From Bacillota bacterium (GTDB taxonomy: Bacteria > Bacillota > Clostridia > Saccharofermentanales > DTU023): DNA of 64,000 bases. The stretch lies in the NCBI GenBank assembly GCA_023389255.1, contig JAEWER010000037.1, positions 1,833-65,832 on the forward strand. Reading direction: 5' to 3'. The notes under the pieces were generated by a model that was not told the DNA's origin, ran no database searches, and worked only from the letters and a program-made list of their open reading frames with translations. Of the stretch, positions 2,204 to 21,886 are shown one piece after another; position 1 is the first letter of the stretch; each line of letters opens with the position of its first letter. The position numbers and the translations under genes are program-made.

Positions 2204-3886
<1,683 letters not shown>

Positions 3887-3919
3887 TCAACTACTGACTT
3901 AATCCCGCTATAAAGTTAA

Positions 3920-3941
3920 AACGCCTAGGAAACTAGGCGTT
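3920..3941 (-). terminator. Intrinsic terminator downstream of infA
   Basis: Hairpin AACGCCTAG-nnnn-CTAGGCGTT lies 8 nt after the infA stop, followed on the minus strand by TTTAACTTTA. Confidence 0.6.
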
Positions 3942-3948
3942 GTATTTT

Positions 3949-4167
3949 CTATTTGGAGCGCCAAGTGATGCGACCTTTGCTTAAGTCGTAAGGCGATAGC
4001 TCGAGCGTCACATGGTCACCAGTCAAAATCTTGATGTAGTGTTGACGAAGCTTACCCGATAAGTGAGCAATAACTTCATGCCCGTTTTCTAGTTGTACAC
4101 GGAACAGGGTATTAGGTAGAGTATCAACAACTACGCCTTGAACCTCGATCAGATCTTCTCTTGCCAT
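3949..4167 (-). CDS. infA: Translation initiation factor IF-1
   Basis: 72 aa, [41 protein letters not shown]... ATG at 4165..4167 is preceded by AAGGAGAA. The 126-aa ORF in the track is an upstream over-extension. Confidence 0.95.
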
Positions 4168-4198
4168 ATATTCTCCTTGATTACAAAATTCATTGCCT

Positions 4199-4206
4199 AT
4201 TTTACA
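4199..4206 (-). promoter_or_regulatory. Candidate extended -10 promoter for infA
   Basis: Minus strand reads TGTAAAAT (TGn + TAAAAT) about 32 nt upstream of the infA ATG and overlaps the stop codon of the upstream M29 gene. No good -35 element. Confidence 0.35.
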
Positions 4207-5314
4207 CCATGCTAATGGTTTGTTGTAGACAACCTTTGCTAAGTAAATCAATTTGTAAATCTGGTGTACCAAAACAGATATCAAGATGCAGATCGCTTTG
4301 GTTATAAAACTGCGATAATTCAGCTTCACTTTTACCTTGCAGGCAAGGAGTATATGTTAAGGGATAGCTAGCTCCTAAGGCAAAATGACAACCCGCATTT
4401 TCATCGAGTAAGGTATCGTAGTAAACACGCTTAATACGCTGAGCTAAAACTATAGCTATTTCACCTAAATATGCTCTATCCAGACGATCAGCCAACAAGT
4501 TATTCAAAGGTACATAATCGCTTTCAGCTTTTCCCGCCTTAAAAGATAAATTGCAAGGTGCAAATTCTGCTCCTGCGTAACAGAAAGGTCTTTGCGTCAA
4601 AACGTTACCTTCTACCCCATATTTAAGTGGTGCCGTAAAACATTCAAAAGTAGGGAAATTAGGTAAATATTTACGTCTCTCTACACCTTGGCAAATTTGT
4701 CTACCACCAATAAACGGAGCATTGGCAGGTAGCTGAACTCGCAAATCACAAGTACTACTTCTAAAGTGCAAACTATCGATTGTACTTTGATTTAAGCAAC
4801 GCACTAGCGCTTCGATTTTTGCTAGGTCAGATTGATAGTTACGAGTTATTTCACCTAATTCAGCCGCTAATTCCACTTCGCTAAGTTTTAGTTTATTCGC
4901 CCAGGCTTTACTAGCAATTACCGCCGAACAACTCACCACTTTACCTGCTTGGGTTAATTTCTTGAATGGTTTCAGCGCATCTATAAAAGCAAGATAGACT
5001 AGTTCCGATAGCTGTCTTAAGCAACTTTGATTCAATTTAAGAAAGCAAACTCCTTGCCTATGATAAGCACAGAGTTTTGTTGCTAATTTTCCAACGCTAG
5101 CTAGCTTTCCTGTCGACTTAAATTCGGTTTCTAACTCTTCTATTATCAGAGTATCTACGTATGGTCTATTTCCTGAAATAGCAGTAGCCTGACTAACAAG
5201 TTCATTTATATCTAACCCATCAACACACAAAATGTGGAGCTGATCTCCCTTGATCAGCCCCACGCCTAAAGTCAGTAACTTATGTAAATAATCACTATAA
5301 CTATTGCAAACCAT
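4202..5314 (-). CDS. M29-family (AmpS/AmpT/PepS-like) aminopeptidase
   Basis: Family-like motifs [32 protein letters not shown] and [10 protein letters not shown]. The N-terminus [22 protein letters not shown] fits the family when starting at the ATG at 5314 (370 aa). That start overlaps the upstream gene by 14 nt. Confidence 0.6.
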
Positions 5315-6017
5315 ATTCTTTGACCGCTTGATCAATTGCCTGTCTACACTTTGCATAACCAGCTGCAATGCCATCTGGATCTTTGAAGAGAGCAGATGAC
5401 AAAACTACAACATCAGGATTAGTCTCTATCAATGGCGCAATATTATCGTGTCTGATGCCACCATCAATTGATAGCTCACACCTAGGATTACATTCATCAA
5501 TCAATTTTCTCGCTCGTTTCAGCAGATGCACGACTGATCTACGCCAACCCCAATTGTCAGCGCCATCTGTTTCATCGACACCATGAGTGACTACGTGTAG
5601 ACGATCGATATCGTAAATCGACTCTTCGACGAAAGACAAAGGTGTATAGCAACCAATGGTGAGTCCAATTTTTAAGCCACGCTCACGACACCAGTTGATA
5701 ATATATGCCAGCGGTGCACCAATGAAATGTTCAGCTGGAATTATTAACATATTGGCTCCTGCCTTGGCGATTTGATCAATGAACATTACATCCATTGAGC
5801 GTGTGTAAATGTGACATTCAATCGGCTTGTCAGTTACAGGGCGAATACCATCAATAATCTGATAACCACCCATCAGCTTCATATTTTGTAAATCATGCAT
5901 GTCGGCGGCATCTGAATGTACGTAATCAACGCCCGCTTCCACAGCTTGTCTTACTACTTCAGCAATATTGCCATAGTTTACATGTGCTAAACCGGCAGCA
6001 ATTTTAATGTGTTTCAT
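5301..6017 (-). CDS. Ribulose-phosphate 3-epimerase family protein (Rpe/AlsE-like, diverged)
   Basis: Aligns by eye to Rpe: GVDYVHSDAAD (cf. VHFDVMD), IECHIY (cf. IDVHLM), LSIDGGI (cf. LEVDGGV), VLSSALF. ATG at 6017 is preceded by GGGAGGAG. Confidence 0.7.
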   Translation of the reverse strand: MKHIKIAAGLAHVNYGNIAEVVRQAVEAGVDYVHSDAADMHDLQNMKLMGGYQIIDGIRPVTDKPIECHIYTRSMDVMFIDQIAKAGANMLIIPAEHFIGAPLAYIINWCRERGLKIGLTIGCYTPLSFVEESIYDIDRLHVVTHGVDETDGADNWGWRRSVVHLLKRARKLIDECNPRCELSIDGGIRHDNIAPLIETNPDVVVLSSALFKDPDGIAAGYAKCRQAIDQAVKEYGLQ

Positions 6018-6038
6018 AATTTCTCCTCCCAATATGAC

Positions 6039-7673
6039 TTAAGCTAAATTCAGGCGCTCTCGCATGGTGGTAGCAATTTGCCCAACCTGCACGCCATAGA
6101 TAATTTGAAAATTTTTATCTCCTCTCAGCACGCCCTTAGCCTCAAGATGCTCTAGCCAATATTCGGTATCTGCAACTTTTGTGCCGTCAAACACTGTCAC
6201 TCGCAATCTGGTAGCACAGTTACCCACTGCTTCAATATTTTCGCTACCACCAAAGGCAGAAATAATGCGCTCTACTAAATCAGCGGTATCGCTGCTAGTA
6301 GCGCTAGACTTTTCGCTTTTAGCCTGTGCATTTTCAGCTTGCTGGTTGCGATAATCTTGCTTGCTAAACAGCTTGATCTCTGCTTGCTTTTGCTTTCTTC
6401 TACCAGGAGTGGGCAAATCAAAGCGCTTAATTACAAAGCTAAAGACAAAGTAGTACAGCGCAAAGGTTAAAGGCAACAACCACAGCGCATGGATGGCATG
6501 CACTTTATGCGGTTGCGCTAAGTTAGGGATCATGAACAGTAAAGCCGTTCCGTTAATAGATATCTGGAAAAACTCAGCTAGCACATACATCAAACCACAG
6601 AGCGGAGCATAAACTAACCAATACAAAGCAGGTGCTACAAATAAGAAAGTGTATTCAATCGGTTCAGAAATACCGACCAGAGCGAGTGTAAACACTGCAG
6701 GGATCAGAATTGAGGCAACACGCTTCTTGTTTTCGGGTAAGGCTAACTTATACATTGCGAGAGCTGCTCCAGGCAAGCCTGCTAATTGGAAGAGCAATCT
6801 ACCATTAGTAAAATTGCGCACAATATAACCAGTAGCTGTAGCACTAGCCGCTTGTCCATTGATGATGTTTTTAACTCCTTCATACACTACCCCATCAATA
6901 TTCATGGTACCTCCAACCGCTGAATATTCAATTGGGAAAGCGATTAAGTGATGAATACCAAAAGGCAATAACGCCTTATCGAGCGTCCCGAAAACAAAAG
7001 TACCAAAAAGTCCCGAAACACCAATAAAGTGTGTCAAGCTCTGTAACAGATAGGCTAGCAAAGGCCAGAGATAATAAAAGATATAGCCCAAAACCACCGC
7101 ACTGAATGTAACGTTGATAATCACCCAACGCACACCACCAAAGAAAGCAAAAGTATTAGCAAAGCTCTTATCTACCAAGCGGTTGTGTATTAAAGCTGCT
7201 ACCACACCAGAGATCAGGCCTGAAAAGATTCCCATGTTGTAGGTAAAAATGCCCGCCACAGATGTAAACATACTACTGAAATTAAGAGCCGCTTCCTTCG
7301 CCATACCACTAGCTATTAATGCATCCGCTGTTGTTGTTTCAGCGGTATAACCATGAGCTTTCGCTAAGGTTTGCAAACAGACATTAAAAGTGAAAAATAA
7401 GACTACACCAGCAAAAGCTGCCCATCCTTTTTCTTTTTTAGCTAAAGTAAAAGCCACACCTACTGCAAACCAAATCGGCAGATAGTTCATGAAAAGAAAA
7501 CCCATATTGACAAACATGCCAAATAAAGGTTGAAGCCATGAATTCTCTGGTAATAAATAATTGTTGACTGCAGAGCCAATACCGACATAAAAACCGACTA
7601 ACACAAAAAGAATGATGGGAACCATCATAGCGCCAGCAAAGCTCTGCACTTTTTCTTGAAAGCGCTTAAACAT
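6039..7673 (-). CDS. PTS sugar transporter, EIIC-EIIB fusion (glucose/maltose family)
   Basis: A polytopic membrane domain of roughly 430 aa is followed by a Q/S-rich linker and the EIIB(Glc) cysteine motif GNCATRLRVTV. No EIIA domain. Confidence 0.85.
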   Translation of the reverse strand: MFKRFQEKVQSFAGAMMVPIILFVLVGFYVGIGSAVNNYLLPENSWLQPLFGMFVNMGFLFMNYLPIWFAVGVAFTLAKKEKGWAAFAGVVLFFTFNVCLQTLAKAHGYTAETTTADALIASGMAKEAALNFSSMFTSVAGIFTYNMGIFSGLISGVVAALIHNRLVDKSFANTFAFFGGVRWVIINVTFSAVVLGYIFYYLWPLLAYLLQSLTHFIGVSGLFGTFVFGTLDKALLPFGIHHLIAFPIEYSAVGGTMNIDGVVYEGVKNIINGQAASATATGYIVRNFTNGRLLFQLAGLPGAALAMYKLALPENKKRVASILIPAVFTLALVGISEPIEYTFLFVAPALYWLVYAPLCGLMYVLAEFFQISINGTALLFMIPNLAQPHKVHAIHALWLLPLTFALYYFVFSFVIKRFDLPTPGRRKQKQAEIKLFSKQDYRNQQAENAQAKSEKSSATSSDTADLVERIISAFGGSENIEAVGNCATRLRVTVFDGTKVADTEYWLEHLEAKGVLRGDKNFQIIYGVQVGQIATTMRERLNLA

Positions 7674-7700
7674 ACAGCCTCCTCGTTTTTCTTTAACTAT

Positions 7701-7715
7701 AGGAAGACGCTTCCT
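7701..7715. promoter_or_regulatory. Perfect 6-3-6 palindrome in the divergent regulator/PTS intergenic region
   Basis: AGGAAGACGCTTCCT lies 28 nt upstream of the PTS start codon. It is a candidate operator or leader hairpin, and no U-tract follows it. Confidence 0.3.
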
Positions 7716-7766
7716 GTCTCTTTGTCGTTTTTTGCACTTTTAATAGTGAAGATTTAGTCTGTATCT

Positions 7767-9194
7767 ATGCAAAAGATTGTCTACCGTGCTTTAGAATTTT
7801 TAGCCTTACATCGAGAAGAGTTCACTTTGCCAGAGGTGGCAGATCATTGTGAGCGGAGCTTACGAACTCTACACCACTACTTGCCAGAAATAAAAGCAAT
7901 ACTTGCCAATTTAGATATTGAATTAGTACTGGTGCAGGGACATCAAAGTTTTTTACGAGCAACACCTATACAAGTACAAGCTTTATTTGATTTTCTTGCC
8001 AAAGAGAAGCGTGCCAGCAAGGGCACTTCCTTATTTGCCCAAAGACAAGTTAGACTCTGCTACATCTTGCATCGCTTATTAGTCTTAAATCAGCCTATTA
8101 CCAGCAAGGCATTAAGCCAAACCTTGTTGATCTCTAACTCTCAACTACAACAGGACTTAAAAGTGCTAGAACGCCAGCTAATAACCTATGATATTCAGCT
8201 ACTGCGTGATAAATGGCATCGCCTTCGTCTCGAAACAGGAGAAAAACGTACACGAGTAGCTATTTTAGATCTATTGCTGCCGTGGGCAAACGAACACTAT
8301 TTTGGAGACTATCTGCTTTTGCAATGGCAAAGCGATGTTCACTTGCAATACCTAGTCGAGCAATTTTTACACAAGTCATTGCTCAGCTGTGGCTTGGCAG
8401 CACCACTAAAGCAGCAACGCATCGTAGATCTGATCTTAATTTCACTCTACCGCTTAAAACAGGGAAAAATGGTTAAACTTGCACCTAGAACACAACATTT
8501 ATTAGACGACGATTTACTGAAAGCTCTCAAGCAGAGTAGTTCTACCCTAGAGCATGAACTCAAGCTATACATTCCTAAACAAGAATTAATCTATTGGTCT
8601 GCTTTTATCAAGGGACACAATTTTTACCACTCCACTCCCGACACTTACAGCAGTGTACAGTTAAACTGCTTCAACCACATCTACAATCTTTTAGCAGAAA
8701 TTAAACCAGAATTACTCCCAAGGCTCTCTACTGGCTTACTACCTTTTTTAGCAGAAATCAGCCATAGACATAATTTTGATCAGGTCTATCACTTCGATAG
8801 CAACAGCAACAGCCGATTGCTCTTACAAGAAAATGAGATAATAATCCAAAAATTGAATGATCAAATAAAACAAGATCTGGCAATCTCGCTACCCACTAGT
8901 TATCAGGAAAAATTAGCCGTAATTATAGCGACACTAGCCCTACCGAATAAAAACAAACTCAAATTGAAAATATATCGTCAGCTAGAAACAGTAATCTGTG
9001 ATTATAATTTGGCTCTCATCTCACAACTTTATGCTGACTGGCAGGAAGTTAAAACAGAAGATCAAGCCGATGCTGTAATATGTTTTGGCAATCAGCAAAC
9101 AAACGTAGAGAATAAACCTTGTTTTGTGATAAACAGTGTTCTTTCTCATAAACAAGCTAAACAGCTTGCTCTAAAGCTACTAGATTTACTCTAA
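7767..9194 (+). CDS. PTS-operon transcriptional regulator (HTH + Mga/PRD-like helical region + C-terminal EIIB-like segment)
   Basis: Two N-terminal wHTH-like segments (FTLPEVADHCERSLRTLHHYL; ITSKALSQTLLISNSQLQQDLKVLE). The gene is divergent from the PTS gene. Domain assignment is by resemblance only. Confidence 0.55.
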   Translation: MQKIVYRALEFLALHREEFTLPEVADHCERSLRTLHHYLPEIKAILANLDIELVLVQGHQSFLRATPIQVQALFDFLAKEKRASKGTSLFAQRQVRLCYILHRLLVLNQPITSKALSQTLLISNSQLQQDLKVLERQLITYDIQLLRDKWHRLRLETGEKRTRVAILDLLLPWANEHYFGDYLLLQWQSDVHLQYLVEQFLHKSLLSCGLAAPLKQQRIVDLILISLYRLKQGKMVKLAPRTQHLLDDDLLKALKQSSSTLEHELKLYIPKQELIYWSAFIKGHNFYHSTPDTYSSVQLNCFNHIYNLLAEIKPELLPRLSTGLLPFLAEISHRHNFDQVYHFDSNSNSRLLLQENEIIIQKLNDQIKQDLAISLPTSYQEKLAVIIATLALPNKNKLKLKIYRQLETVICDYNLALISQLYADWQEVKTEDQADAVICFGNQQTNVENKPCFVINSVLSHKQAKQLALKLLDLL

Positions 9195-9215
9195 AACTAG
9201 CTGCGCTACTCTGAA

Positions 9216-9656
9216 CTATCTGAGTTGCTCCAAAGCTCGACGAATTTCACTATCTAGATAACTCTTTGGTGCAGATTTAGGTAGTTTAGTACGCTTTTTC
9301 TTTGCTTCTCTCTGCCAGGTAAAGCTAGTATCCTTTTGGCATAACTCAGCAAAATCAGTACGCAACTGCTCGACTTGCTCAAGGCTATAGAGTGGCTGAA
9401 TTGGTCTGATATGCTTGAGTGATTTTAATTTAGCGTTAGCTAAGGGATGATGTTCTCCATCCACCAACCATACTCCATATAGATCATCTGCACGCTCAAC
9501 TAAATCGATTACCAAGTAGTAACGACCTTTATCGTGGCCAGCGATTGCTTGCACAGCAATACCCACTAAACTCGTACAACCTTGCAACGCTTCTCTTTCA
9601 ACTCGATTGCATTTTTGACGTATCGGCAACTTCATGTTCAGTTTGCTTATCCTCAA
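9216..9656 (-). CDS. KOW-domain RNA-binding protein (the map-infA-associated type)
   Basis: Core GIAVQAIAGHDKGRYYLVIDLV...VWLVDGEHHPLANAKLKSLKHIRP and its position directly after map. Start is uncertain: TTG at 9656 or ATG at 9635. Confidence 0.6.
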   Translation of the reverse strand: MRISKLNMKLPIRQKCNRVEREALQGCTSLVGIAVQAIAGHDKGRYYLVIDLVERADDLYGVWLVDGEHHPLANAKLKSLKHIRPIQPLYSLEQVEQLRTDFAELCQKDTSFTWQREAKKKRTKLPKSAPKSYLDSEIRRALEQLR

Positions 9657-9663
9657 TAGCTAC

Positions 9664-10473
9664 TTACTCTTTGCTCTGATAAGCATATTCTGGATGTGCC
9701 AGCGCTTCAGCTTTGGTTAACGATAAAACTTTAGGACCTGCAGGTGTTACTACAAAACAATTTTCGTAGTGAGCAGCTGGGCTACCATCCAAAGTGACAA
9801 TGGTCCACTCGTCGCTTTCTATACCAATACGGTAATCACCCAAGGTAACCATAGGTTCTAAACACAGGGTCATACCAGCTTCCAAGCGTAAACCTCTACC
9901 AGGATTACCATAATTGAGTAGTTCTGGGCCCTCATGTAGATTGCGACCCAGTCCATGACCACTCATTTCTCGCACAATGCCAAAACCATGCTTTTCACAA
10001 TGAACTTGCACAGCATGAGAGATATCGCCAATGCGCTTACCCAAGACAGCTTGCTCTAATCCTAGCCAAAATGACTCTTCGGTAACTCTAACTAGTTCCC
10101 TAACTCGTGCATCTACTTCTCCCACACAAAAAGTACGACAAGCATCTGCCATGTACAGATCTAGCTCGCACCCCACATCGACCGACACAATATCTCCAGA
10201 CTGAATAATACGATCTTTACGGGGAATGCCATGCACTACTTCATCGTTAACAGAAACACATGCTGAACCAGGAAACGGTGGTGTACCATAGTTGAGAAAA
10301 TTAGGTTTTGCACCGTGTTCCGCAATAATCTTGAACACCAAATCGTCGATATCCTTAGTGGAAATTCCAGGGCGAATGAAATTTTCGCAGGCTTCAAAAA
10401 TGCGTGCCACAACTTGGTTTGCACGATACATTAGTTCTACTTCGTGTTCGCTTTTAATGAAAATTTTATCCAT
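9664..10473 (-). CDS. map: Methionine aminopeptidase, type I
   Basis: 269 aa with the pita-bread motifs DVGCELDLYMADACRT, SGHGLGRNLHEGP and LEPMV. Confidence 0.95.
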   Translation of the reverse strand: MDKIFIKSEHEVELMYRANQVVARIFEACENFIRPGISTKDIDDLVFKIIAEHGAKPNFLNYGTPPFPGSACVSVNDEVVHGIPRKDRIIQSGDIVSVDVGCELDLYMADACRTFCVGEVDARVRELVRVTEESFWLGLEQAVLGKRIGDISHAVQVHCEKHGFGIVREMSGHGLGRNLHEGPELLNYGNPGRGLRLEAGMTLCLEPMVTLGDYRIGIESDEWTIVTLDGSPAAHYENCFVVTPAGPKVLSLTKAEALAHPEYAYQSKE

Positions 10474-10488
10474 AGTGCTTATTGTTAT

Positions 10489-11130
10489 CTATTCCTCTGC
10501 TAATTCTGCCAAAGCACAAGCTAAAACTTCTTCTGGGCTTTGCATGGAGTCAATGCTGATTAGCTGATTATCTGTGCGATAGTAGTCAATCACCGGTTCT
10601 GTTTGGCGATAATAAACTTTCAAACGTTTCTTGATAGTTTCGGGCTTATCGTCATCTCTTTGCACCAAGCGAGTACCACAAATATCGCAAATACCAGCAA
10701 CTTTAGGAGGCTTGATCAAGAGGTTATAACTCGCACCACATTCGGGACAAACCCAACGATTAGAGATGCGTTCAACGATAATATCCTCATCGACACTCAG
10801 CGCTATAGTATGCGTTACTTTGCGCCCTAAGCGATCCATCATCACATGTAGCTCTTTGGCTTGTTCCAAGTTGCGCGGATAGCCGTCTAAGATAAAGCCC
10901 TTCTCGGCTTGTTTCAGACGCTCAAAGAGCATCTGATCTGTAATCTCATTAGGCACCAATTTGCCTTGATCAATGTACTTCTTAGCTTCTATGCCTAAGG
11001 GTGTTTGTTCACTGATGTTCTTACGAAACAAATCGCCGGTTGAGATGTGCTCCAAATCTAATTTGGTCAGCAGATTTTTCGCCAGTGTGCCTTTACCTGA
11101 GCCAGGCGCACCTAACAACACGATATTCAT
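10489..11130 (-). CDS. adk: Adenylate kinase (zinc-lid type)
   Basis: P-loop GAPGSGKGT, and lid CPECGASY...CDICG. Confidence 0.97.
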   Translation of the reverse strand: MNIVLLGAPGSGKGTLAKNLLTKLDLEHISTGDLFRKNISEQTPLGIEAKKYIDQGKLVPNEITDQMLFERLKQAEKGFILDGYPRNLEQAKELHVMMDRLGRKVTHTIALSVDEDIIVERISNRWVCPECGASYNLLIKPPKVAGICDICGTRLVQRDDDKPETIKKRLKVYYRQTEPVIDYYRTDNQLISIDSMQSPEEVLACALAELAEE

Positions 11131-11162
11131 AAACTTCCTCGATGTGTGGAGATATACAATTT

Positions 11163-11168
11163 AGTATA
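11163..11168 (-). promoter_or_regulatory. Candidate -10 element (TATACT) for adk-map
   Basis: TATACT on the minus strand lies 32 nt upstream of the adk ATG and just downstream of the giant-gene terminator. Only weak -35 candidates are present (TAGACT at 19-nt spacing). Confidence 0.3.
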
Positions 11169-11198
11169 ACGCAAAGCAGGCGCAAAAAGTCTAGCCAT

Positions 11199-11229
11199 AA
11201 AAAAAGGCGTTGCTCTTAAGAGCAACGCC
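11199..11229 (-). terminator. Intrinsic terminator of the giant surface-protein gene
   Basis: GGCGTTGCTC-TTAA-GAGCAACGCC (10-bp stem) followed by T7 on the minus strand, 20 nt after the stop codon. Confidence 0.85.
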
Positions 11230-11249
11230 TAGAACAGCTATATTTTCGC

Positions 11250-14200
11250 TTAGCGCTTAGTTTGTTTTTTGCGAACCACTACAGCTAGACCTGCTAGGGC
11301 GATCAATACAGTAAGTAATCCAGTTGCACCTGCTACCTCACCCGTTCTCGGTACAATGCTATTCACAATGTTTTGAACTTGGCTCGGCATGACTACATTC
11401 TCTGTTCTGCTGGGCACGGGTTCTGCAATCTTGCTGTAGACCAACTTGATCACTTGCTCACCCTTGACTACTTTGCCCTTGAGCGGTGCAGAATCATCTG
11501 CCAACTTCTCGTACTTGTAACCATCGATGGTGATGGGTTCGTAGCTGTACTCTGTGCCTACTGCGACATCAGTGAATACTACTTGTCTCTCGACATCTGG
11601 GATTGCCTTACCATCTTCATCCACAAACTCAACTGTTACGCTACCACGCTCTAAGTCGGTGAATAAGGTGAATACAGTAGGCTCAGTAATCTTATGTGCT
11701 AGTACTTCTTCATCTGTGAGTTTGTCCTCACCACCTGCGATGCTCCAATGGCTGAAGTAATAGACATCAGGTTGCAACAAGTCGAACTCAGGCAGTGCCA
11801 CTTTCATCTCATCAAAGAATTCACCATCTTTGAGGCTGGTTCCTTCCTTGACAAAGTACTCAGGAACATCACCCTTGAATGCCACTTTGTCTTGTTGCTC
11901 TAACGGTACCTCGAAGCTCACCTTGTGATAAGTATCGACTAGGATCTTCACTTCTACATTCGGATCGACAAACTCATAGTTCAGCGGATCGATTACGGTA
12001 TATCCATCTGGACCAACCACTGCAAAGTCTGTTGCTTTGTACTTGTGCAGACCGTCTGTTCCATCAGTATTCAAGATAGGCAAGTCTGACGGATCAGCGA
12101 TAGGCTCACCGTAGAGTACAGTGACTTCGCGCTCGTTGGGTACCTCAGCATTGCTGGGGTTAGTAAATGTATTGATATCTGTCTTGAACTTGATGCGGAC
12201 AGTGCTGTCATAAGTCAGCTGACTGTCGCTCAAGGTACTTTCAACCGCTCCCATGGAGTTACGTTCAACACGTACTTTTAATAACTTGCCGTGGAATTGA
12301 CGGATCAGGTTAGACGGAATATCAAACACGACTTTACCGTCAACCACTTTACCGATAATCGCATCGGGTGTTGGTGTTGAGGTGCTGTAAACAATCTCAG
12401 ACACCAGCGTTGCTTCTGCTTCTGTTTCAGTCGTAGTGGCTGTATTAGCATTGCTATTTACAGCAGGCTTTTCGTTAGTTTCAGCAGAAGTTGATGCATT
12501 GTTAGTTTCTGGGCTGTTAGCCGGTTGCTCTGTGCTGTTAGCCGGTTGCTCTGTGCTGTTAGCGCTTTCATTGCTTGCTACAACACCAGAACCATTTTCG
12601 GCAGGTTGTGCCCCTACTTCACCAGCTACATTTTCTGCGCCAACTTCATTGGTTGTATCAGCCTCATTTTCCGTACCATTCTCTGTATTAGAAACTGAAC
12701 TGTTAGACGTATCAGCGCTATTTTCGTCTGTTGCGGGTTGAGCGTTAGCGTTGCTTTCAGTAGCATCGCTCTCGGCATGGTTGCTCTCAGCTACATTTTC
12801 GCTGGGCTGATTTACTGCTTCATTGCCTGTTGTAGCGTTATCTTCAGAAGCTACTAGCTTATTCTCAGCAGATTTATCACTGGTCTCGGTATTGGTTGCG
12901 GGTTTAGCTTCAGTCGGCTTTTCTGCTTCAGGTTTATTCACTACGTTTGTAGCACCAGAAGTCTTCCAAACATGACCAACTTCACCACCAGTATTGCTCA
13001 GATCTTCAACTGCGATCGGGCTACCATCAACACTGCTCAGCTTATTTCCATTTTCATCTGTCAGATAGTAGATAACGCTACCTTGTTCAGCTGCACTGGT
13101 ATTGAACCAGCTATCGGGCAATTCAGCGGTCACTTTGAAACCATCTTGCCCCAAATTCTTCGCATAGGGCAGATATGTTGCAACGAAGAGCATGTCGTGA
13201 TCAATCACTTTATCACCACGCATCAGTTTACTAGTCTCGTTATCTAACCACAGCGTACCCTTAAATTCTTCATACTCACTGATCAAAGGTTTGACCAGAT
13301 CGCTGGTTAACTTAGCAGCTTTCTTCTTGACGTAGTACTTAACTGTATTGCTATTCACTGCTTCACCAAATTCACCAGCATCAAATAGCACTGTTACGTA
13401 GCCAGCTGGGCGACTCTCAACGTCCTCGGCAGGAATAATATCGTCTTGATCTACGTGGTAGAAGAATGTTACTGGCTGATTGATGGGGTAAGCTTTGACA
13501 CCGGCATCGTCCAATTCCTCTGTCCCCTGGTTGGCTTGCCACTTCAGGAAGTGGTAGTTACCAACAGGTGAGATAGAGGCAATTTTATTGGTGCCTAAGT
13601 TGCTACCGTGCTCAATGTAGTAGACAGGTACTTGATCATCGTATCTAGCGTAATCGTTAGATGACTCAGCAATGGCAAATGTGACCTTGTGGAAAGTTTT
13701 GTTATTAACTGTCACGTGGTTAGTTTTTGCCACAAACTGATGTGCTGTCGGATTAAAGTCTTCGCTGTCTTCTGTGCTGTAACCTGTTTGTTCATAACGG
13801 TTGTTGTCTTCAGCATCCTTGGTGATGATGGTGGGCAACTCATTCTTATCGACGCTTGCGCCATACATCACTTTAACCACTCTCTTCTTAGGAGATTTAG
13901 AATCGTTACCATTGGTCAAGGAAACTTTTGCTTCAAAGACTACTTCAACCATGCTGTCATAAGTGACGCCTGTGGTGCTAATAGTATTTTCATCGTCACC
14001 ACGTGCCACCATGACATGCAAATCTTTACCATTCAACTTTTCAATCACGTTCGGCTGAGTGCCAGTAGGAATTTCAAAGGTGATGGTATTGTCTTCTCCA
14101 ATCTTGCCTGTAATAGCCTTTTGCGGATCTAAGTCCCTGGTCAGAGTGCCATCTTTGCTGACGTAGTAGGTTACAGGTGTGCCGTTTTCATCACCCTGCA

Positions 14201-17200
14201 CAACAAGGTATGATCCCAGACCATTTCTCTCGTCATCACCTAAGCTATTAGGCAATTTGGCGGTGATGTTGAAACCATCCTCTTCTTGTTCTACCTCTGT
14301 TGCAACTGGCAGATACTTAGCGGTGATGGTGTAAGGCTTGTTTTCATCCTGGATCAGCTCGCTCAATTTGCTTGCTTCCTTAATCACAACATCCTTAGCA
14401 TCCACCCATGAAGTATGCACATAATTGCTTTCAGGTTCTAAATTCGCCTTAGCATCAAAACGCTTGATCAGATCACCAGCGGTCAGTACAGAATTACGGA
14501 TACGTACTAAGAAGACAAAATCAGCGTCTTTTTTAATCTTGCCGTGTTCACCTGCATCGAAGACCACAGTGTAATAACCAGGTTTGGTTACTCTCGGATC
14601 TTTACCAGGAATGACCTCAGGACCATTTGCATAAGATGCGTTAAAGGTCAGATTTACATTTTGAATTACGGTTTCTTCTGGTACCGGACTCCACTTATCA
14701 AACACTTGTCCGTTAGGAGCATTGGGTTCGCTTACAGCTAATTGTGAAGCCTTGATGTTCTTGTTTTTAGCTACCCAGAATTTCTTCTGTTTGACGTTGT
14801 TAGCAAACGAACCGTCCTTAGCATCAAAGATGACTTCGACGTAACCGAAGGGAGGTGTGGTACCCTCTGGATCAGGGATAATGTTCTCACTCTCGACGTA
14901 CAGATAAATATCTGTGTTGTCATTGATCGTTATTGCCGGCACCTCAGTAGCTGATTCGTACTTGGTTGTGCCATTGTCTGCTGACCAGTAGGCGAACTCA
15001 AAGACATCATGTGCCATGGTGGCACTAGGCATCGTGATGGGGTTACCATCAAAGGTTTCGTTCTCATCTAAGTCCGTGGTTTCTTTGACATAGTACTCTG
15101 TGGTACCAGTTAAACTTGCTTGTTCACTATGTTTAGGCAGGAAGCGCACGCGGTAGTAGGTATCGAAGTTAACCATGATCTGCTCCACTTTATCGGGAGA
15201 GGTTGCGGTGAACTCTTTGCCTAGCAGTGCATCTTTAGCCAATTTCTTTTCCGTCTTGTAATCGTAGCTTGCGATCTTGTACTTAGCATGTGTGGTTGCA
15301 TCTGCCACATCGCTGATGGTGGGCAGATCACCCTGCTGCAAGCTTGAACCATAGACCACGTTCACAGTTTTGAGTTTAGCGTTAGCCCCTGTCTTATCAT
15401 CACCATTGGTAAAGTCACGAACTTGGGATACGAACTGCACCTTGACAGTACCTACATACGTAAAGTCAGTAGCGCTGGAGGTGGTGTATTCGCCTTTCTC
15501 AATGCGTACTTTCATGGTTTTACCGTTGAGAACTGCCACATCATCAGGCTTGATATTAAAGACAACGCCGTCCTTAGTAATCTCGCCAGTAATGGGTGTA
15601 CCATCGCTACCTTTGACGATGACAGGCTGGTTATTCTCATTTTGCTCGGTCAGGAAGACTTCGTAAGAAGCATAATCGCTTTCTTGTAAGTCTTCGGGCA
15701 ATTTAGCCGTGATATTCCATGTTTTATTGCCGTCAGCATCAGTTGCTTGTGCAGGTGCGCTGGCAACAGGAATGTAATCGGCAACCAGAGTTGTTTTAGA
15801 CTCAGTGATAGCTGCTGTGCTCTCAGCTAGCTTAATTGGTTGACCATCTTTTAACCAAGTGGTGAACTCATATCCTGCGGTTTGATTATCTGCATACTTG
15901 TTCGGGACTGGTGTTGGTGCATACCCTTTGATGTCGTTAAGTGACTTGCTGACGTCATCTCTCAAATGCACAACATTTTGTGTGTTAGGTGCAAAGGTAC
16001 CGTACTTGCCAGAGTTAAACACAACTCTCTTGTCGTAACCCGGCAACTCTTCGTCTTGATCACCAGTTTGAATTTCAGGCATATCACCAAAGATAGCATT
16101 TACAGCATCATTACCTGTGAAATCTTTATCGATTACAGTTGTATCTGCAACACTGTATCGGTTAAATACATACCCTGGTTTGGCGGTCGGATTTTCTACG
16201 CCTAACTCATTCAACTTCTTAGTTGCTGTTTTTAGTACCCAAACTTTGCGCTCTTGTACTTGAGCTTGGTTGAGAGTCCAATAACCCTTAGTGGCATCGG
16301 CCTTAAACACTACTTCATAGAAGTCGTTAGGCTTGGAACCATTAGGATCTAAGACGACTTCTTTAGGTAAGAATCTCACATCGTATTGCACTGGACCAGT
16401 AACTGTTTCTTTGTCCATATCAGCAACTTTGACACCGTTCTTAGCAAAGCCATCAGCTGCATAAACCTTTGCATCGTTCTCTTGAATCGTGGGAACTGTC
16501 AAGCTACCACCATCAAATAGTGGAGCCTTATTAACATTGCTTCCCTTAAGGGCGTAGTAGACAAGGCTTGAATCGCTTTTGTTTTCGAAACTACCTTTGT
16601 TGCTATCAACAACAAACTTAACCTTGGAATAGGTGTCATAAGCTACTGCAATCGCTACCTGTCGCTCAGTCTGTTTATCGTTATTGACATCAACAGCCGT
16701 ATTGCCATTCATGTAAGGGTTGGTGCTGCTCAATTTGTACTTGTTATCTGGTTCTGTGCCTTCGTCAGACTCCTTAATTGTGGGCAAACTACCGCTTAAG
16801 GTTGAGCCATAATCAATTGCAACCGACTTCTGTTCATTATTACCAGCATCACCGTCAGTAAATTGTGAAGCATTGGTGCTGTAGACTACGTGAACTTTGC
16901 CATCATAGGCAACATTCATTGGATTACTCACGGCTTGATCGCCCAATGAGTTCTCCGAAATGGCCTTGAGATTTTTACCATCTAAATTCTTGATGGTAGG
17001 ATTGCCCGTGTTGGGTATCTCTGTAGGAATTGTGAACTTAACAGTTTTGCTTGCCAAATCAACTGTACCTGTTAAATATTCTTGATCGGCACTGGGTGAG
17101 GTAACTGGCATGCCATCTTTTCCTAATCTATTGCCACTGTCATCGGTGAGATAAAAAGTGACACCAGCCAAATCTTCTTCTGTTACGTCGCTTGGAAGTG

Positions 17201-20572: not shown

Positions 20573-21886
20573 TTAACGATCTAAGAAACCTTTGTAATGA
20601 CGCATCATCATCTGCGACTCTAATTGATTTACTAGATCCATTGCTACACCCACCACAATCAAGATAGCGGTACCACCAAACCACAAGGCATTACTGGTGC
20701 TGGTAGTGACGCTCATCACCATGGGGAATAGCACGATAACTACTAAGAAAATTGATTCCACCCAGCTGATGCGACGAGCAGTCTTAGTAATGAACTCTGC
20801 TGTCGGTCTGCCCGGACGAATACCAGGGATAAAACCACCATTTTTTTGTAAATTATTCGAGATCTCAATCGGATTAAATGAAATCAATGAATAAAAGAAT
20901 GTAAAGCCTACAATCAAAATGGCATAGAGTGGATAGTAGATCGGATTATGGTTAAAGTTCAAGAACCATTGAGAAATAGGTCCTTTACCACCAGTCAACG
21001 AAGCGATGAACGAAGGCACCAACATAACATTCAAGGCAAAAATTACTGGTAATACACCAGACTGATTCACCTTGATAGGCAAGTAAGTGCTTTGACCACC
21101 ATACAGCTTTCGACCTACAACACGTTTGGCATACGACACATGAATGCGACGTTCTGATGATTGAATGAAAACAACCAAAGCTATAGCCAAAATGAATACT
21201 ACAATTACCAACAATACGCCTAACAGAGCAATAATCATATTACGCTCATCAATCCAGTTCATGAATGTTAGGTACAAATTCTGGATCATGCTGGGGAATC
21301 TGCTCAAGATACCGACAAAGATAATCAAAGAAATACCGTTGCCAATACCACGCTCGTTGATTTGTTCACCCAACCACATGATGAAGGCAGAACCAGCAGT
21401 GAAGCTTGCAATAACAACAATTGCATTCAACCAGCTAGGCAATGAACTGGCACTAGCATCTTTGGTAGCTGACCAATAAGCAAAACTCATCACCAAAGAA
21501 ATTGCGATAGTGAAATAACGAGTAATCTTTTGGATCTTCTTTCTACCACTCTCACCTTCTTGTGCTAAACGTTCCAGCGCAGGGATCGCCACGGTCAACA
21601 ACTGCATGATAATTGAAGCGTTAACATAAGGCTGAATACCTAGAGCAAAAATGGGAATTGCTCTAACGTGTTCACCGGTTAAAGAAACACCCGAAACGAT
21701 CTCGAGGAAGTTACCGAACTGACCAAAATTTCTGATCAGTTCAGTAAACTTTTCAACACTGATACCGGGTACAGGTACTGCTGCACCCAAGCGATATACC
21801 AAGATGGCAAAAATGGTGAATAAAATCTTCTTGCGCAGATCTTGAATTTTGAAAGCATTACGTAAGGTATCTAACATGCTACCCAT
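20573..21886 (-). CDS. secY: Preprotein translocase subunit SecY
   Basis: 437-aa polytopic protein directly after rplO. ATG is preceded by AGGAGG. Confidence 0.95.
   Translation of the reverse strand: MGSMLDTLRNAFKIQDLRKKILFTIFAILVYRLGAAVPVPGISVEKFTELIRNFGQFGNFLEIVSGVSLTGEHVRAIPIFALGIQPYVNASIIMQLLTVAIPALERLAQEGESGRKKIQKITRYFTIAISLVMSFAYWSATKDASASSLPSWLNAIVVIASFTAGSAFIMWLGEQINERGIGNGISLIIFVGILSRFPSMIQNLYLTFMNWIDERNMIIALLGVLLVIVVFILAIALVVFIQSSERRIHVSYAKRVVGRKLYGGQSTYLPIKVNQSGVLPVIFALNVMLVPSFIASLTGGKGPISQWFLNFNHNPIYYPLYAILIVGFTFFYSLISFNPIEISNNLQKNGGFIPGIRPGRPTAEFITKTARRISWVESIFLVVIVLFPMVMSVTTSTSNALWFGGTAILIVVGVAMDLVNQLESQMMMRHYKGFLDR

Follow-up and report, generated by a model that had tools for sequence, protein, structure and literature searches.

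The 64,000-nt stretch analysed here, from contig JAEWER010000037.1 of a Bacillota bacterium (hereafter the window, at its full length), carries between map and infA an island of four genes, which encode a permease of the phosphotransferase system (PTS) of the EIICB type, an Rpe-like protein, an M29 aminopeptidase-like protein and a divergently transcribed regulator. Gene calls were made from open reading frames (ORFs) and from Pfam and NCBIfam profile scans. In related loci, the permease and Rpe-like genes are almost always accompanied by a gene for a cytosolic exopeptidase, which belongs either to the M20 or to the M29 family. We give about an even chance to the reading that the island is the minimal four-gene core of a conserved catabolic cluster family of Bacillota, which imports a sugar-amino-acid or sugar-peptide conjugate by the PTS. 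The M29 partner and the minimal core are new, while PTS operons with exopeptidase genes are already known but unsolved. The cluster family is widespread and uncharacterised, and its M20 form is common. With the smallest gene set that keeps the association, the window offers a convenient and compact system for experiments.

In the proposed mechanism, EIICB, served by an EIIA-Glc encoded elsewhere, would import and phosphorylate a compound in which a sugar is bound to an amino acid or a short peptide. The cytosolic di-metal M29 exopeptidase would then hydrolyse the amino-acyl or peptide bond, a job that would fall to a PepV/Sapep-type M20 dipeptidase in most relatives. The Rpe-like enzyme would carry out enediolate chemistry beside the carbonyl of the phosphorylated sugar part, and the simplest reaction of this kind would be a ketose-phosphate 3-epimerisation leading to a central metabolite. 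Expression would be driven by the divergent Mga-type activator and probably held down by CcpA at a box resembling a catabolite-responsive element (cre) in the EIICB leader. The analysis establishes which genes are present, that their catalytic residues are retained, that the genes stay together through rearrangement and that M20 and M29 exclude each other; a conjugate as substrate, the sequence of steps, the epimerase reaction and control by CcpA are inferences from this.

Exopeptidase partnership in the cluster family

Clusters with orthologous EIICB and Rpe-like genes were identified in metagenome-assembled genomes (MAGs) of Erysipelotrichaceae, in Jeotgalibaca, Faecalicoccus and Clostridioides, and in gut metagenomes. 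The three best M29 relatives of a word-based search (29-34% identity) come from the Erysipelotrichaceae MAG loci L001/L009, L004/L010 and L008; an exhaustive HMMER search gave a few M29 relatives scoring slightly above those three, and the context comparison covers the three. These loci carry EIICB, Rpe-like and Mga/PRD regulator proteins that are 58-62%, 70-71% and 25-28% identical to those of the window, respectively. They also carry EIIA-Glc, a 461-aa beta-eliminating lyase, an Fe-type alcohol dehydrogenase (Fe-ADH), an HbpS-like protein and a GFO/IDH/MocA oxidoreductase. In Jeotgalibaca ciconiae, Faecalicoccus pleomorphus and Clostridioides sp., the Rpe-like gene lies with genes for EIICB, a Mga/PRD regulator, Fe-ADH, YitT and a HAD phosphatase. 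In these three species a 460-aa M20 peptidase stands in place of the M29 protein, and FSA/transaldolase and transketolase genes are sometimes present.

A census was made of 85 loci with the Rpe-like family, after a metagenome scan with the family profile had added 80 loci; the neighbouring ORFs were clustered and representatives were annotated. Fe-ADH was the most frequent neighbour (61 of the 85 loci), followed by the Mga/PRD regulator (44), Glc-type EIICB (36), YitT (35), a tryptophanase/tyrosine-phenol-lyase-like lyase (31), a Sapep/PepV-like M20 dipeptidase (25) and M29 (12). After near-identical loci had been collapsed, 20 non-redundant EIICB groups were obtained, among which 14 contained M20, 5 contained M29, none contained both and a single group contained neither. 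The partnership with an M20 or M29 exopeptidase is near-obligate (19/20) and mutually exclusive.

The association holds through rearrangement. Within the cluster, the M29 gene was found after the regulator gene (L001, L010), alone between the regulator and Fe-ADH genes (L115-L129), beside the GFO gene (L008) or after the Rpe-like gene (window), and the M29-containing clusters show at least three gene orders in unrelated genomic contexts. A second minimal cluster, L124, has the order EIICB-M20-regulator-Rpe and contains no Fe-ADH gene within 10 kb. The window and L124 are equally minimal, and the four-gene set looks like an irreducible core.

An earlier note on this DNA, made from the sequence alone, had tied the M29 gene to the EIICB and Rpe-like genes and had suggested a gene-neighbourhood search. 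The tie is supported by recurrence in orthologous clusters, by a clade of its own (described below) and by M20 as a substitute, and the search itself gave M20 or M29 in all but one of the EIICB groups. By the note, an M29 gene conserved beside infA in relatives without the PTS and epimerase genes would have refuted the tie; no such case was found among the collected loci, which include no close relatives of the window organism. Only L042, L118 and L129 among them carry infA, and there it lies 6-7 kb away from the M29 or the Rpe-like gene.

The PTS is replaced in the L096, L097, L131 and L150 versions and in the L142, L148, L159 and L164 versions of the Rpe-like/Fe-ADH module. In one PTS-less form, permeases and an APH-like kinase accompany an OppA-like binding protein of family 5. 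The other has, besides the binding protein, an M29-like protein of 637 aa, a pair of Xaa-Pro-dipeptidase-like amidohydrolases and an M3 oligoendopeptidase. Through these transporter versions, the Rpe-like/Fe-ADH module is linked time and again to proteins that transport or process amino acids and peptides.

PTS permeases are usually seen as carriers of plain sugars or polyols, and an exopeptidase partnership of this regularity points to a substrate class of sugar-amino-acid or sugar-peptide conjugates. Glycated constituents of food are among the candidates, as are pieces of glycoproteins or cell walls. The uptake of a sugar that carries an amino acid or peptide, which the earlier note had put forward, is plausible and gains from the peptidase partnership, from the versions with OppA-like proteins and a kinase, and from the tryptophanase-like lyase; its classical Amadori form does not, as no deglycase for such a route is present.

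Proteins and control region of the island

The three minus-strand genes of the island are tightly packed. The EIICB and Rpe-like genes are separated by 21 nt, and the stop codon of the Rpe-like gene (5301-5303) and the ATG of the M29 gene (5314-5312) lie in a 14-nt overlap, through which the M29 gene is predicted to be translationally coupled to the Rpe-like gene. The true start of the Rpe-like protein is MKHIK, with the ribosome-binding site GGGAGGAG before it; the longer ORF, which extends to 6032, corresponds to an upstream TTG. Coordinates and sequence agree with the layout described in the earlier note, namely three packed genes with a 14-nt overlap, a divergent regulator and a 6-3-6 palindrome. 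As the note had also reported, no gene for EIIA, a glycosidase, a kinase or a deglycase was found in the locus. The accessory genes of the related clusters (Fe-ADH, EIIA, YitT, HAD, HbpS-like and GFO) and the lyase have no homologue anywhere in the 64-kb window.

EIICB matched PTS_EIIC (PF02378) with 160.7 bits and PTS_EIIB (PF00367) with 50.9 bits. Its translation carries GNCATRLRV, which contains the phosphorylatable Cys in the CATRLR motif, and GISEPIEY; the domain scores and the motif agree with the Glc/Mal-family assignment made earlier. The protein reached the cut-off of no NCBIfam specificity group, and even the best models stayed far below theirs: MalX (score 290.7, cut-off 632.2), alpha-glucoside (289.9, 607.3), PtsG (260.8, 591.8) and NagE (260.3, 553.2). 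Its orthologues in the related clusters share 58-64% identity with it. By these scores, EIICB is classed as a Glc-family PTS permease that forms a putative subfamily of its own. EIIA-Glc is commonly encoded apart from EIICB genes.

The Rpe-like protein matched Ribul_P_3_epim (PF00834) with 88.8 bits and fell below the equivalog cut-offs for Rpe (TIGR01163, 91.9 against 212.6; NF004076, 83.2 against 165) and for AlsE (NF007266, 68.9 against 271). Among PDB matches, entry 3CT7 (2e-11) was weaker than true Rpe proteins. The metal-binding and acid/base residues of Rpe are kept (H34-x-D36, H69 and D185) and are invariant across the family, in accordance with the H-x-D, H and D ligand contexts read from the sequence before. 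The PGFGGQ loop is known from published Rpe structures as the phosphate-binding and capping loop. In the Rpe-like family it is replaced by DETDGxDNWGWRR, and alignment to 1TQJ places THGVDETDGADNWGWRR where Rpe has SVNPGFGGQSF, and LSSALF where Rpe has AGSAVF.

Conservation within this family is high, with a mean column identity of 87% and with 74-100% identity among the 120 relatives listed. The Rpe-like protein of the window is 70-82% identical to those of cluster members and matches all 126 invariant columns of the family alignment, with the signature HSDAADMHD...ECHIYT...DNWGWRR. The protein from Faecalicoccus alone was found in 531 blocks of the assembly collection. Taken together, these features predict a metal-dependent TIM-barrel protein whose highly conserved family is separate from those of Rpe, AlsE and SgcE.

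The M29 protein matched Peptidase_M29 (PF02073) with 153.8 bits (cut-off 27) over profile positions 65-393 of 406, and phmmer comparison with the PDB recovered AmpS (8e-21), PepS (4e-19) and AmpT (1.6e-15). In alignments to AmpS and PepS, the complete EEHYHD set is kept as E224, E285, H310, Y317, H343 and D345; the AmpS equivalents are E253, E319, H348, Y355, H381 and D383, and each is essential in the Listeria enzyme LmAmpII (PMC7023490). All six residues could be aligned, which bears out the catalytic contexts that the earlier note had found retained. An AlphaFold2 model (pLDDT 88.2, pTM 0.88) was confident and matched the M29 fold: Foldseek aligned it with AmpS (1ZJC; E 1.1e-27, TM 0.79), PepS (TM 0.76-0.80) and AmpT (TM 0.82). 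The model thus predicts the two-domain M29 fold for the window protein, which looks active from its catalytic set and from the confidence of the model. At lower similarity (TM ~0.44-0.49), the model also resembled the 2,5-dihydroxypyridine dioxygenase NicX and the crocagin proteins CgnB and CgnE, a kinship that indicates that the M29 fold is not confined to peptidase chemistry.

When 1.84 billion representatives were searched exhaustively with HMMER, the M29 protein found only itself below 1e-30, and the next matches were 30-40% identical; neither this search nor the word-based search gave a relative above ~40% identity. Orthology is therefore argued from gene context and from a tree. In a neighbour-joining tree with 100 bootstraps, the cluster-linked M29 proteins stood apart from housekeeping M29 proteins in 98 of 100 replicates, and the window protein grouped with those of L001 and L010, likewise in 98 of 100. 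For the M29 protein, the phylogenetic placement proposed in the earlier note leads into the cluster-linked clade. Directly before the ligand Glu, 19 of 20 housekeeping M29 proteins have E, whereas the window protein has F and 7 of 10 clade members have Q; further changes in the cluster clade are W128 to S and Y299 to Q. Such changes at conserved positions fit an altered substrate. The M29 proteins of L001 and L004 share 58% identity where the EIICB proteins of the same loci share 91%, and this fast evolution indicates that strong divergence is characteristic of the whole clade.

The regulator exceeded the cut-offs for HTH_11 (27 bits, cut-off 25) and Mga (26.3 bits, cut-off 21.1), while its PRD scored 18.1 bits against a cut-off of 23, compared with 67-101 bits for the PRDs of its relatives. 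Of the HTH/PRD-like description given earlier, the HTH/Mga part is upheld and the PRD part is sub-threshold. The AcpB/EbpR/MafR model gave 44 bits (cut-off 130), and identity to the regulators of L001, L004, L008 and L010 is 25-29%. At the columns conserved in the relatives' PRDs, the window regulator has no His, in an alignment of only 15-22% identity. Judging from its sequence, control of this regulator through PTS phosphorylation may have been lost.

The control region common to EIICB and the regulator, which contains the EIICB ribosome-binding site GGAGG (7680-7684), was aligned with the leaders of L115, L122, L125 and L127. With the cre consensus WTGNAANCGNWNNCW / TGWAANCGNTNWCA, a cre-like box, TGTAAGCGTTTTCC, was identified in the EIICB leaders of L115, L125 and L127, where it agrees at 13 of 14 consensus positions and lies between the TATAAT box and the ribosome-binding site. 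The palindrome of the window aligns exactly at this box and has two mismatches to the 15-mer form of the consensus. A second cre-like site, TTGAAAGCGCTTAAA, at 7656-7670 (+), lies over EIICB codons 2-6 and has one mismatch to WTGNAANCGNWNNCW. Across the window, cre-like matches occur at chance level (38 found, 34.4 expected), so that it is solely the positional alignment with the relatives that carries the cre reading of the palindrome. On this ground the palindrome is more likely to be a variant cre site for CcpA than an operator for the divergent regulator. An antiterminator mechanism of the ribonucleic antiterminator (RAT) type was rejected in favour of a DNA site, as no significant RNA structure was found at the palindrome (z = -0.73) and Rfam gave no match within 3500-10000.

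Genomic setting and rival explanations

The features of the region are listed in Table 1. In the direction of minus-strand transcription, the order is secY, the LPXTG gene, adk, map, the small orphan gene, the island, infA and pyrG.

Table 1. Features of the island and its flanks in the window
Feature	Position	Strand	Remarks
secY	20573-21886	-	flank
LPXTG surface protein gene, 3029 aa	11250-20339	-	flank
adk	10489-11130	-	flank
map	9664-10473	-	flank
small orphan gene ('KOW' of the earlier note)	9216-9635	-	upstream flank, convergent with the regulator gene
regulator, 475 aa	7767-9194	+	HTH_11 and Mga; divergent from EIICB
control region common to EIICB and regulator, 93 nt	7674-7766		sequence read, leader alignment
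6-3-6 palindrome AGGAAG-ACG-CTTCCT	7701-7715		perfect inverted repeat
EIICB, 544 aa, first operon gene	6039-7673	-	PF02378 and PF00367
Rpe-like gene, 238 aa	5301-6017	-	PF00834
M29 gene, 370 aa	4202-5314	-	PF02073
hairpin and U-rich tail within the 5' part of the M29 ORF	5234-5263	-	folding against shuffles
infA	3949-4167	-	downstream flank; TIGR00008, 111 bits
pyrG	2204-3871	-	flank

The word island, used in the earlier note, is apt in the positional sense and has no compositional or repeat signature behind it. The GC content equals that of the flanks and no flanking repeats were found, so a recent horizontal insertion is unsupported by composition. The label KOW for the orphan gene, which lies between map and the island, is based only on its position and on a motif of B. 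subtilis YbzG, and the searches lend it no support: the protein has no Pfam or NCBIfam match and found only itself among 5.8 billion proteins. At 90% identity, pyrG, adk and secY of the window organism are singletons, which indicates a very poorly sampled lineage. By their affinities, the M29 protein and the regulator lean towards Erysipelotrichaceae-like Bacillota.

The highly repetitive, LPXTG-anchored gene splits the usually contiguous secY-adk pair, and together with the PTS island it makes two insertions in one conserved operon region. Downstream, infA is followed by pyrG instead of rpmJ-rpsM-rpsK-rpoA. In another lineage with M29-type clusters, at L118 (13826-16064) and L129 (17585-19824), the Rpe-like gene has infA, adk and secY at a distance of ~7 kb. 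The position of the cluster near secY-adk-infA in two distant lineages, that of the window and that of L118 and L129, could be due to chance (roughly 1% per lineage) or could be a remnant of shared ancestry.

The infA start lies 34 nt past the M29 stop, with no terminator in between, and a terminator-like hairpin was found only after infA (3920-3941); the essential infA gene may therefore be partly read through from the catabolic operon. The M29 stop codon shares its position with a candidate -10 box, TAAAAT (4199-4204), which overlaps it. The hairpin within the M29 ORF has a 12-bp stem and a folding energy of -22.3 kcal/mol (z = -4.72; 0 of 200 shuffles as stable); it is followed by AUUUUGUGUG and lies 52-81 nt downstream of the M29 start. 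Other samples of this species gave three contigs, which are 99.8-100% identical to the window over 5257-16886 at most and end no more than 58 nt into the M29 gene, the rest of which, like the infA junction, lies outside their coverage. Two independent assemblies of this species stop at 5257 and 5295, at or within ~30 nt of the hairpin. The hairpin is possibly an internal attenuator, unless it simply hindered sequencing and assembly.

Several observations weigh against a conjugate as the substrate and against full function of the four genes. The M29 protein of the window sits on a very long branch, with ~30% identity where its neighbours share 60-80%, and long-branch attraction in the neighbour-joining tree is therefore possible. 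About 27 marine loci (L134-L172) have a compact, conserved operon that runs from the tryptophanase-like lyase through Fe-ADH and the Rpe-like gene to fructose-type PTS IIA, IIC, IIB and enzyme I, and contain no M20 or M29 gene, so that the peptidase is not universal to the Rpe-like module. The equivalog models and the literature searched assign no substrate to any cluster member. The locus contains no deglycase, glycosidase, deaminase or kinase gene, and a classical Amadori, muropeptide or amino-sugar route would accordingly be incomplete. Fe-ADH, present in most loci elsewhere, is absent from the window, as are EIIA, YitT, HAD and HbpS-like genes, and the PRD of the regulator appears degenerate from its sequence. 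Guilt by association cannot distinguish use of a conjugate from distinct sugar and peptide functions that are merely regulated together. In the balance over full function, the missing EIIA and Fe-ADH, the PRD and the long M29 branch stand on one side, and intact ORFs, translational coupling and complete catalytic sets on the other.

A plain sugar route is possible, though on the unlikely side. EIICB would then import a rare ketose or a pentitol-derived or alpha-glucoside-like sugar, the Rpe-like enzyme would epimerise the phosphate ester, and M29 or M20 would be auxiliary, be it as a deacylase or esterase, as an amino-acid provider under the same signal, or in a moonlighting or regulatory role, as is suspected for SgcX, FrvX and YpdE/F. 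Three E. coli PTS operons with M42/M24 aminopeptidase genes, of which one also encodes an Rpe-family epimerase, give this route its precedent, and deletion of sgc caused no growth defect on the 190 Biolog carbon sources tested (PMC13343008). The frequent transketolase, FSA/transaldolase-type enzyme and HAD phosphatase of related clusters are typical of pentose/ketose phosphate routes, the M29 fold hosts non-peptidase chemistry (the NicX dioxygenase and the crocagin proteins), and the marine versions do without either peptidase. A near-obligate, exclusive partner is nevertheless hard to explain if it is a dispensable helper. Moreover, M20 and M29 are exopeptidase families whose substrates are short peptides that have a free amino terminus, the catalytic set is complete, and OppA-like transporters and more peptidases lie beside the same Rpe-like/Fe-ADH module.

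The island might instead be the decaying remnant of a larger cluster such as that of L001/L010 (EIICB-EIIA-lyase-Fe-ADH-Rpe and regulator-M29-HbpS-GFO), left after gene loss and rearrangement, in which M29 and the regulator are drifting and which would no longer form a working pathway; this we consider unlikely. Decay would account for the Fe-ADH, EIIA, lyase, HbpS-like and GFO genes missing from the window, for an M29 protein (~30%) and a regulator (25-29%) that are far more diverged than EIICB (~60%) and the Rpe-like protein (70-82%), for the sub-threshold PRD with its conserved histidines lost, and for the strong terminator-like hairpin within the M29 ORF. It fits poorly with four intact ORFs that have ribosome-binding sites or translational coupling, with the retention of every M29 and Rpe-like catalytic residue, with the confident folding of the M29 model and with the independent minimal cluster L124. 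The 99.8-100% identity of 5257-16886 in other samples of the species also speaks against decay, covering only the first 58 nt of M29. The divergence of M29 is, as the comparison of L001 with L004 indicates, a property of its clade, and an EIIA-Glc encoded away from EIICB is common in PTS biology.

That the M29 protein is a housekeeping aminopeptidase, placed by chance between a sugar operon and infA, is very improbable. M29 enzymes are common cytosolic aminopeptidases of Bacillota, and most of the 80 genome loci retrieved with the M29 profile have no PTS or Rpe-like neighbour. A fortuitous neighbour would not be expected to overlap the Rpe-like gene by 14 nt, to fall into the cluster-linked clade in 98 of 100 replicates or to recur inside orthologous clusters in other genomic contexts, and no M29-infA pair without a PTS was seen among the collected loci.

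Individual substrates were also considered, and none was taken up. A classical Amadori compound was dismissed because the clusters contain no SIS deglycase, and N-acetylmuramic acid or a muropeptide because EIICB is not MurP-like (36.7 bits) and the clusters contain no etherase or amidase. N-acetylglucosamine-asparagine was set aside for want of a glycosylasparaginase in the clusters, N-aminoacyl-glucosamine and bacillithiol for want of a deaminase or glycosidase, and teichoic-acid fragments because the Fe-ADH is unlike glycerol-1-phosphate dehydrogenase (25 bits).

A further reading, in our view a long shot, takes the three operon genes as a complete and hitherto undescribed pathway in which the Rpe-like enzyme acts on the still-conjugated, PTS-phosphorylated substrate and not on a free ketose phosphate. 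One possibility would be that a ketosamine 6-phosphate is enolised with the help of the metal and loses its amine, which would make the enzyme a deglycase unrelated to SIS-type FrlB/GfrF; another would be the elimination of an aglycone from a keto-glycoside. In both cases M29, or M20 in relatives, would trim the attached peptide to a single residue. If true, such action on the conjugate would account for clusters that never have a deglycase or glycosidase, for the Arg/Trp-rich loop that replaces the Rpe loop, for the near-obligate peptidase, and for the OppA-type transporters and APH-like kinase that replace the PTS. It would also provide a lead for the aminopeptidase genes of E. coli sgc, frv and fry.

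Comparison with known systems

The M20 clusters of Faecalicoccus pleomorphus, Jeotgalibaca ciconiae and Clostridioides sp. share with the window EIICB (~62-64% identity), the Rpe-like protein (77-82%), a Mga/PRD regulator and a cytosolic exopeptidase. The peptidase is of the PepV/Sapep-type M20 family in these clusters and of the M29 family in the window. The M20 clusters usually add Fe-ADH, YitT, EIIA-Glc, a HAD phosphatase and an HbpS-like protein, and often FSA/transaldolase and transketolase, whereas the window lacks all of these. In the literature searched, which was a limited library, no paper describing a cluster of Rpe-like, EIICB and exopeptidase genes was found.

Conjugates of sugars and amino acids are handled by several characterised systems. 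E. coli frlABCDR and Salmonella gfr and fra take up and phosphorylate a sugar-amino-acid conjugate; frl includes the 3-epimerase FrlC, which has another fold, and gfr includes a PTS, of the mannose family. These systems depend on SIS-type deglycases (FrlB, GfrE/F and FraB), whereas such a deglycase is absent at the window locus. To our knowledge, frl, gfr and fra contain no M29 or M20 peptidase.

Of the named models, MalX gave the window EIICB its highest score, still far below the cut-off (290.7, cut-off 632). In E. coli, MalX is paired with the pyridoxal-phosphate-dependent beta-C-S lyase MalY, which belongs to another fold family of such enzymes than TnaA/TPL. The malX-malY arrangement parallels the EIICB-EIIA-TnaA-like lyase layout of L001, L008 and L010, while the window has no lyase gene. 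In the Cys-Gly-3M3SH route of Staphylococcus hominis, a PepV-like dipeptidase followed by a C-S lyase processes a conjugate, and the cluster M20 protein scored 214 bits against the model for the S. hominis dipeptidase. Unlike the window, neither malX-malY nor the S. hominis route has an Rpe-like enzyme.

The operon of the marine loci, which come from AT-rich bacteria and in which it sometimes lies beside a secreted HExxH metalloprotease gene, recalls E. coli frw/ptsA-fsaB-gldA.

The earlier note knew of no M29 enzymes as members of PTS operons. Peptidase genes as such do have precedents there, as sgcX/sgcE, frvX and ypdE/ypdF of E. coli are long-known cases that still await an explanation (PMC13343008). 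The K-12 operons are sgcX-sgcB-sgcC-sgcQ-sgcA-sgcE-sgcR (M42 and Rpe-family), frvA-frvB-frvX-frvR (M42) and fryA-ypdE-ypdF-fryC-fryB (M42 and M24). The frv and fry operons resemble the island in combining a PTS with aminopeptidases (FrvX and YpdE, M42; YpdF, M24), and FrvR begins with HTH_11, as does the window regulator. They differ in their fructose-type PTS, in their peptidase families and in having no Rpe-like gene; FrvR has an EIIA_2 domain, which the window regulator lacks.

The sgc operon also unites a PTS permease, the Rpe-family protein SgcE (PF00834), the M42 peptidase SgcX and a regulator. Its PTS is probably of the galactitol type and its regulator probably of the DeoR type. It has separate IIA, IIB and IIC proteins where the window has a fused Glc-family EIICB, its peptidase is M42 rather than M29, and SgcE is a near-canonical Rpe (252 bits) that is 21% identical to the window Rpe-like protein. 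The sgc regulator is annotated only as a "putative DNA-binding transcriptional regulator", and the operon lies in a cryptic prophage island. According to a 2026 study, the substrate and biochemistry of sgc are still unknown, induction occurs under nitrogen-containing conditions, and the deletion strain has no growth defect (PMC13343008). The cluster family described here bears on the old puzzle of the aminopeptidase genes in E. coli sgc, frv and fry, to which it adds the M29 and M20 families and a testable hypothesis.

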